Source: Podarcis cretensis (Eukaryota). Taken from it: a DNA stretch of 64,000 bases. Below the pieces are notes generated by a model. That model worked only from the letters and a program-made list of their open reading frames with translations. It was not told the DNA's origin and did no database searches. Where the stretch lies: positions 19,282,001 through 19,346,000 of the forward strand of contig OX638158.1 of the NCBI GenBank assembly GCA_951804945.1, read 5' to 3'. This document shows, piece by piece, positions 17,804-19,613 of this stretch. Each line of letters opens with the position of its first letter. Position 1 is the first letter of the stretch. The translations under genes were made by a program, and so were the position numbers.

Positions 17804-17871
17804 CTTAAATTAAAAGAACGATTCAGACTCTAAATGTCTCAAAGCGAGCAGAGGCTGCTGGCGTTACTCAC

Positions 17872-17896
17872 CGCAGAAGGGAGTAGATGGGTAGAC
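17872..17896 (-). other. Candidate 25-nt cassette (poison) microexon in WNK1 intron 3
   Basis: ~40-nt polypyrimidine tract + CACAG acceptor, 25 nt, then GCG|GTGAGT donor. Confidence 0.45.
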
Positions 17897-19613
17897 CTGT
17901 GAGAAAAGAAGAAGTGGAAGCAAAAAGAAGAGGGAGGACACCCTCAGTCACTCTGTTTCATCAACGTATCCCATGGGTCTTCCATTGCAAGGCCTTTGCA
18001 AGAAGTGAGGAACCAACAGTTAAAGGTTTTTATGTTCACCATTTATATATATTATAATGGAACAGAATCGGGGGGAACATATGAAGATTTTACTCATAAT
18101 GGTATATGATTGAATCCCAGGTTGAAGATAAACGGAGAAAAATAAAGTAAGAGACTAGCTAGACTACAAACCAAATACTTGTTAGACACACTTACCTTTC
18201 CTCCTTGTGAGAAAGGAGGTATGAGGCTTGTTTCAGCATCCCTGCCTGCCCTCTGCTGTAAAAAATTAGTACTGGAAAGAGTCCACAGCTAGTCTCTGAC
18301 CCGTAACACTCCATTTACTTCTGTTTAGTGTCACTTTAAACAAAGCCTTGCAATGAAAAACCCTGTGTTTATGAATAAAGGCTTCTTAAAAATTAATTTT
18401 TCAAAAATGTTCTGCAAAGGCCACTCACCAGAGCCCTTTTTACATACTTACCATTTCACCTGCAGTACATTTTATAGGCCTACTGCAGATACAGGAAATA
18501 GTGAGGGACATCCTACAGGCAAAAATACTCAGAAATATAGAGAGATTGAGTTATAGGCACAGAGGGCGAGATTCAATAAATCCTAATTTTAAAATCAATT
18601 TGTAGGAGGTGTATTATCCCTGATGTATCAAACCAATGCACCCTTCCGTTTCACAGAAATCTGCACTATATGAATCAGAGATATGTAAGAGCCAGAAATT
18701 ACCAATAAGCAGAGAATTATTTCCTGCAAACAAACCAGATTGTATGCAAATTTACCAATCAATCACTTTTTACTTCCCTATCCATCTTCCCATGATTCAG
18801 TGGTGTTCCAGCCTTAACTGAAAGGGAGCATACTAATTCAATTGTTCAAAAAAGTCAGAATATGGCAGTTTTCCAATTGAAAGTTGATCATAACATATGG
18901 AAAAGAGACTGCTGTTAAGGAAGTTGGTCATTTCCCACTGAATATTCTCCCCTTTCCACTAACATTAATTGTTTCTAGACTGGCTGGAAAGCAGGAAATG
19001 TTTCATTGTCACAAAGGCCAAGATATTTGCAAATGTGAATTTGTATTGTTAAAATCAGGTATTACAACTTCTGAAAACAGAACTTCAGAAATAGCTGTAG
19101 ATTGCATTCTAAAAACACACACTAGCAGATGCAGACTAAAAAGGACCATCTTTTCCCTTGTTAGCTTGCATCCTTCACAAAACAAATAGCAGAACAGAGC
19201 TGTTAAAACCAATTATCTGGTCATAGTTTCAGACCAGCTGACAAAGCTATTGTAGGGTACTTAAATGCAGCAGCCCAGAAATTTTAGGTATAAGGCAGAG
19301 GTTTGTATTTTTTAAAAAAGATTTTTCATTCAAAACTCTGTGCTTCCCCTTAATCCCAGTTCAGAACAGTTATTTCAAAGGATGGAAATACTTTGGTTTT
19401 ATCAAGTGTTCTGCTAAGTGAATGAGCCTACACACCTTGAGAAGATTCTTTAAGAGAATACTAATATCAGGGACCCATATTTTATGAGACCTAAAACTCC
19501 AGAATTTTCAGGGATGAAGCTTTTTTCATTTCCTTTTTTTGCTTTGTGAGAATTGGAAAATTCTATTAGGCAAATTTTCAAGTAAGAACTGCTAAAACAA
19601 ACCAGATGCTTAC

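Follow-up and report, generated by a model that had tools for sequence, protein, structure and literature searches.

We tentatively favour a reading in which intron 3 of the Podarcis cretensis WNK1 gene holds a cluster of decoy or poison splice sites around a weak AAG acceptor, a cluster that would likely lower the amount of kinase-active L-WNK1 and spare KS-WNK1. The intron lies in the window, that is, the whole stretch of 64,000 nucleotides that was analysed. A strong spare acceptor 93 nt 5' of the weak AAG and four internal donors would compete for the pre-mRNA and divert part of it into stop-containing or intron-retaining forms, and this diversion would lower the level of kinase-active L-WNK1. 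KS-WNK1 would escape such control because its first exon, 4a, is situated downstream of intron 3. The working unit is probably the pair of strong acceptor and weak AAG together with the cassettes upstream of it, rather than a 25-nt microexon alone.

The WNK1 gene and the splice sites of intron 3

The window contains the 5' part of the gene, on the minus strand. With this gene included, four WNK paralogues are present in its own genome (1.5 Gb, 51 contigs), named here by the motifs of WNK1-4. The window gene is identified as WNK1 by its exon-4 peptide among the four paralogues and by a KS-type exon 4a, an exon described in PMC6014176. The coding start is at 57771 in exon 1, exon 2 lies near 26243-26071, and exon 3 (19834-19614), spanning the catalytic loop to the start of the activation loop, ends in phase 1 with the donor GTAAGC. 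Intron 3 (19613-17804; 1,810 nt) splits the kinase activation loop, exon 4 (17803-17646) continues from the P+1 loop onward, and exon 5 runs from 986, all on the minus strand. The coding part of exon 4a (5344-5258, minus strand), 3' of the intron-3 element, is intact: cysteine-rich, 29 codons long and followed by the donor GTAAGA. Elsewhere in the gene, the reading frame of exon 1 continues without a stop for 64 codons 5' of the ATG in a GC-rich leader (57771-57963, minus strand), and intron 4 bears two similar repeats (~9780-11260) whose translations resemble the BovB LINE.

The 3' end of intron 3 has the layout that the earlier note described. A long pyrimidine tract followed by CAG (17945-17897, minus strand), with pyrimidines at 18 of the 20 positions of the preceding tract, forms the strong spare acceptor. 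Next comes a 25-nt segment (17896-17872), which is also the first part of a 93-nt extension of exon 4, then its donor GTGAGT (17871-17866) and, counted from the same point, a 68-nt spacer (17871-17804) ending in the weak acceptor TTTAAG. The 25-nt segment is flanked by canonical AG and GT, and its length fits the size class of microexons, which are exons of 3-27 nt spliced on both sides. The TAA within TTTAAG is an in-frame stop immediately 5' of exon 4; therefore, every in-frame extension of exon 4 is unproductive too. A premature stop results from inclusion of the 25 nt before exon 4, from use of the +93-nt acceptor and from splicing of the segment to exon 5. In the first case 124 nt separate the end of the stop, at 280 of 404 nt, from the exon 4/5 junction, more than the 50 nt expected of a poison exon. 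The earlier note's statement that every outcome stops does not hold if a donor at 18452, which it did not list, is taken into account: in-frame routes lead from there through the 25 nt.

On a crude acceptor matrix, the spare site scores 6.5 and the AAG of exon 4 scores -1.2. The gap of 7.7 bits is the largest among the 95 acceptors scored with this small, in-sample matrix, which finds a stronger upstream AG at several control acceptors as well. At exon 2, too, an AG located 35 nt 5' of the acceptor outscores it (7.0 vs 2.9 on the same crude matrix; ~26244-26280, minus strand). Throughout the analysis, thresholds were picked after the data were seen.

Intron 3 contains four internal GTRAGT donors (18452, 18429, 18196 and 17872); at the rate of the gene's other introns, which have 26 such motifs in 53.6 kb, 0.88 would be expected (Poisson P 0.012; shuffle P 0.019). 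The corresponding introns of the three paralogues (4,153, 1,966 and 2,681 nt) contain 1, 0 and 0, and all end in CAG. The donor ATG/GTAAGT at 18452/18451 closes candidate cassette X (18512-18452, minus strand), which has possible acceptors at 18512, 18482 and 18479 (61, 31 or 28 nt), plus one at 18459 (8 nt). Each of the three longer forms brings in a stop after exon 3. Located 23 nt past this donor is a second consensus donor, CTG/GTGAGT (18429-18423, minus strand). Candidate cassette Y (18255-18196, minus strand; 60 nt) has a TACTAAT branch-point match before a tandem CAGCAG acceptor and the donor AAG/GTAAGT, and it carries an in-frame stop when joined to exon 3. Three candidate cassettes of a cryptic, non-coding kind (X, Y and the segment of 25 nt) are present in one intron of more than 1 kb.

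The sites could also be mere splicing noise, that is, cryptic sites that arose by chance, lack a function and are used now and then in nascent RNA; the invertebrate layout described below would then be a separate matter. A strong acceptor and a GTRAGT donor lie within 66 nt of each other once in 56 kb of sense strand, where 0.24 such pairs are expected from the 7 acceptors and 32 donors of this kind on the gene's sense strand, and never on the opposite strand of the same 56 kb; taken alone, the 25-nt pair is only modestly beyond chance. The surviving CpGs pointed out by the earlier note are there, four in the 147 nt near exon 4, as a weak sign of constraint: this count is equalled or exceeded in 24 of 367 intronic windows (6.5%), and that of the 93-nt part in 18 of 581 (3.1%). 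Region 17804-18700 folds in no unusual way (z -0.65) and has no match in Rfam; a repeat origin is ruled out by its single match in its own genome, in a search that skips common words. Splicing within introns is common besides: PMC4482092 puts it at over 60% of the genes active in human, and at ~15% of the primary-transcript level, and the three raw runs discussed below hold nearly no intronic reads. However, noise fits poorly with the excess of internal donors, with the 7.7-bit gap and with a parallel layout that is under constraint in two pairs of invertebrate loci. We regard noise as possible, if rather unlikely; were it correct, intron 3 would offer just an ordinary cryptic splice.

RNA evidence and the routes through intron 3

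One contig run, X1, and three raw RNA runs were mapped to intron 3 alone (17804-19613). Of the 24 runs listed, none of those that contain the sequence is on record as RNA, and none is an NMD-blocked run of this organism. In X1, two contigs form a bubble consisting of an unspliced arm covering 18479-17868 (depth 18.7) and a 57-nt spliced arm (depth 6), contig depth being a poor gauge of share. The spliced arm skips 18451-17897 with GT..AG ends and joins 18452 to 17896. Since this joint is canonical, X1 is probably RNA, although that is a guess. The joint was found in one of the four runs, in one contig, and shows one use of both the X donor and the spare acceptor. The earlier note's claim that the latter is better than the acceptor of exon 4 is supported by the matrix scores. 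At least 28 nt of intron stand 5' of the joint, and the 17872 donor is read through on its 3' side; both arms extend to 17868, beyond the GTGAGT of the 25-nt segment.

With this intron-only mapping, none of the four runs gave evidence of the use of donors 17872, 18429 or 18196, and there was no contig break at cassette Y in X1. Judging by the structure of the graph, the X1 assembly kept no path spliced twice, that is, from 18452 to the 25 nt and on to exon 4; contigs lose rare forms and are silent on molecules spliced straight to exon 3. Of the sequence words that make up the stretch from exon 3 to exon 4, a fraction of 0.70 is present in X1. A single letter of X1 within 17868-17894, near the donor of the 25-nt segment, departs from the window and could touch this donor in that organism.

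The raw runs yielded 0, 3 and 2 intron reads per ~12.6-12.8 million records each, and no splice joint in intron 3. Their first mates map to the plus strand, the orientation that a stranded library should give for RNA of the minus strand. Intron retention may thus be low in these three runs, which counts against the cluster of decoy or poison sites. In run X24, two reads fit 18780-18960 only partly.

In the intrasplicing known from 4.1R, the proximal acceptor is removed first. A similar nested scheme could operate here: the 18452 donor would consume the strong acceptor, and exon 3 would then join the weak AAG, giving ordinary mRNA. The observed splice does link two intronic sites, and the intron sequence left on its 5' side and the donor passed over on its 3' side make the molecule look like an intermediate; such events, with the 4.1R precedent, are described in 10.1101/159350. 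However, a half-spliced intermediate of a poison exon would look identical, cassette X has an acceptor of its own (score 4.7 on the crude matrix), and an internal GTRAGT is absent from the invertebrate loci L019 and L021. All things considered, we think nested splicing improbable.

The form proposed in the earlier note, in which the 25-nt segment is a poison microexon between exons 3 and 4 and provides the main unproductive route, appears less probable still. Its sites are canonical, its stop is placed well before the next junction, its acceptor was active in the contig, and the contigs are silent on molecules running from exon 3 through the microexon to exon 4. Against this, the sole joint comes from the intronic donor 18452, both contig arms pass the microexon donor, the downstream intron would measure merely 68 nt, and the invertebrate elements have no donor between their two acceptors. 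So far, then, the microexon is unsupported. What stands of the proposed AS-NMD switch is that the acceptor is used (in one contig), that the outcomes it named are unproductive and that exon 4a is downstream.

A coding isoform is the least credible of the alternatives and, in our opinion, very improbable. The 8-nt exon 18459-18452 plus the 25 nt would insert 11 residues in the activation loop in frame with exon 4; likewise, a phase-0 exon ending at 18452, for example from a start inside X, would keep the frame and might give an internally started, kinase-dead WNK1. An ATG is present at 18511 and another is the last codon before the X donor; the internal start would give a new 29-residue N-terminus with four cysteines, reminiscent of KS-WNK1, which relies on a cysteine-rich start (PMC6014176). 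Still, both combinations require the 17872 donor, which the spliced contig passes over, there is no sign of a promoter, and no such peptide precedes the exon-4 motif among 240 proteins listed in searches made with other aims.

The activation-loop acceptor in other WNK loci

Returning to the decoy or poison cluster, we compared its weak acceptor with those of other WNK loci. A metagenome scan gave 80 loci, none of them an amniote WNK1. The acceptor set was composed of 28 intron-bearing animal loci: the window, its three paralogues and 24 loci from the scan; L007 and L009, intronless at this site, were left out of the AAG count, and L049-L084, non-animal or distant, out of the acceptor scoring. 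AAG occurs at the activation-loop acceptor in 5 of the 28 loci, as compared with 2 of 66 other WNK acceptors, which were picked by pattern without a hand check (Fisher P 0.023). When relatives are collapsed to 3 of ~17 lineages, P is 0.056. All five AAG loci read TTTAAG, and on the crude in-sample matrix the top-scoring AG on the 5' side is stronger in them than at 88 other acceptors (P 0.005; collapsed, 0.016).

Among the best 120 genomic open reading frames, eight of WNK1 type, probably from fishes, have a residue implying CAG at this site. AAG is therefore not universal in WNK1, which also counts against the proposed cluster. A residue implying AAG was found in none of the best 120 exon-4 frames, in a search blind to TAAG, where the TAA ends the frame; it does occur in 2 of 79 matches listed, both with the invertebrate type of peptide. 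In a protein search with exon 3, none of the best 120 of 845 matches had the microexon peptide as its end; these were mostly unspliced genomic frames and thus uninformative here.

The other four AAG loci, L019, L021, L022 and L025, are probably lophotrochozoan, because among nine named references they score best against mollusc proteins. All of them have a branch-point match, a tract and a CAG upstream of TTTAAG, at 46, 54, 52 and 46 nt, respectively, no donor between the two acceptors, and a stop upon splicing to the upstream CAG. On the matrix, the AAG sites of L019 and L021 come out slightly ahead of the upstream sites. Over their final 104 intron bases these two loci align with a score of 47, reached by none of 300 other windows and none of 300 shuffles; three other intron ends of the same pair score 22, 20 and 13. 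Since third codon positions of L019 and L021 are just 45-52% identical, such conservation of the intron end suggests that the layout is under selection in these invertebrates. L022 and L025 have the last 12 intron nucleotides in common and little else.

Deeper inside their introns, L019 (2865-3265) and L021 (6221-6657) share an inner layout of CAG, a 24-44-nt segment, an AG/GTAAAA donor, a branch point, a tract and TTTCAG, possibly a second conserved unproductive cassette. In L022, a microexon-like 5 nt lies between TTTTACAG and GTAAGT, and in L025 a microexon-like 9 nt lies between TAG and GTAAGT; the activation-loop introns of both loci contain several consensus donors.

No likeness beyond TTTAAG connects the window with the four invertebrate intron ends. 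This, the CAG of the paralogues and the CAG implied in the eight WNK1-type frames argue against a common origin of the two elements. It is nevertheless tempting to suppose, doubtful as we consider it, that the activation-loop intron is an old control point, both of vertebrate WNK1 and of lophotrochozoan WNK, where a weak, stop-guarded TTTAAG opposed to a textbook acceptor 46-93 nt upstream would set the amount of kinase-active WNK. Such a device might be inherited from the bilaterian ancestor or have evolved repeatedly, and it could serve chloride or osmotic feedback on splicing. If the weak-AAG layout is shared with invertebrates, it would be a rare case of a kinase whose unproductive acceptor recurs over great evolutionary depth, and if the idea of an old control point is true, an antisense oligonucleotide could tune the choice of acceptor.

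Relation to known systems

The dose of WNK1 is relevant to blood pressure, potassium handling and vascular development (PMC13686953). The described isoforms all arise at exon 4a or downstream. If our preferred reading is true, the switch in intron 3 changes the kinase-active long form without changing KS-WNK1, and the L/KS ratio would be set post-transcriptionally.

As supposed in the earlier note, we found no previous description: the openly accessible papers and supplements searched, a set with no genome browser or complete junction table in it, report no splicing event in a WNK intron 3. The detained human and mouse introns listed for WNK1 presumably do not include intron 3 either. There are four of these in human and three in mouse in the files searched of PMC4281565. 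PMC8299563 mentions skipping in Wnk1 and, separately, poison exons. A WNK1 row is absent from the supplementary files of PMC7347940, PMC10123112, PMC11632617 and PMC9882217, the full event tables possibly being outside these. The available text of PMC3365125 gives 4a, 8b, HSN2, 9, 11, 12, 26, 26a and 26b as alternative exons of WNK1; neither there nor in that of PMC13686953 is one named in intron 3. Known isoforms thus share with our element the gene and, for exon 4a, the window, and none is placed in intron 3 by the former source.

Unproductive splicing of WNK1 itself is on record. The supplement of PMC13247117 lists a human NMD-sensitive cassette of 117 nt (chr12:882943-883059) followed by 13 exons, and a table of the same paper gives WNK1 a change of +1.46 log2 on UPF1 depletion. 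This cassette resembles ours in affecting WNK1 through unproductive splicing; however, it is far downstream, would hit L- and KS-WNK1 alike and is a separate element. The UPF1-degron table has this one WNK1 event and none near the kinase domain, which counts against a large human counterpart of the intron-3 element in that cell line.

With poison cassettes and unproductive acceptors of the AS-NMD type in general, the sites of intron 3 have in common that their use after exon 3 would bring in a stop that precedes later junctions by far more than 50 nt. They differ in that one of the two junctions per cassette was seen here, with an unexpected partner. The 4.1R case (10.1101/159350) is similar in that splicing joins two positions within one annotated intron, next to competing acceptors; for WNK1 intron 3, a role of the inner splice in making the final product is hypothetical. 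Finally, intron 4 of SF3B1 is described as a retained intron with decoy exons (PMC6097662), and the likeness lies in several cryptic non-coding cassettes with good sites and little visible inclusion within an intron of more than 1 kb. WNK1 intron 3, known from its sites and one joint and not established as a member of the decoy class, adds to this picture a weak terminal AAG with an in-frame stop.
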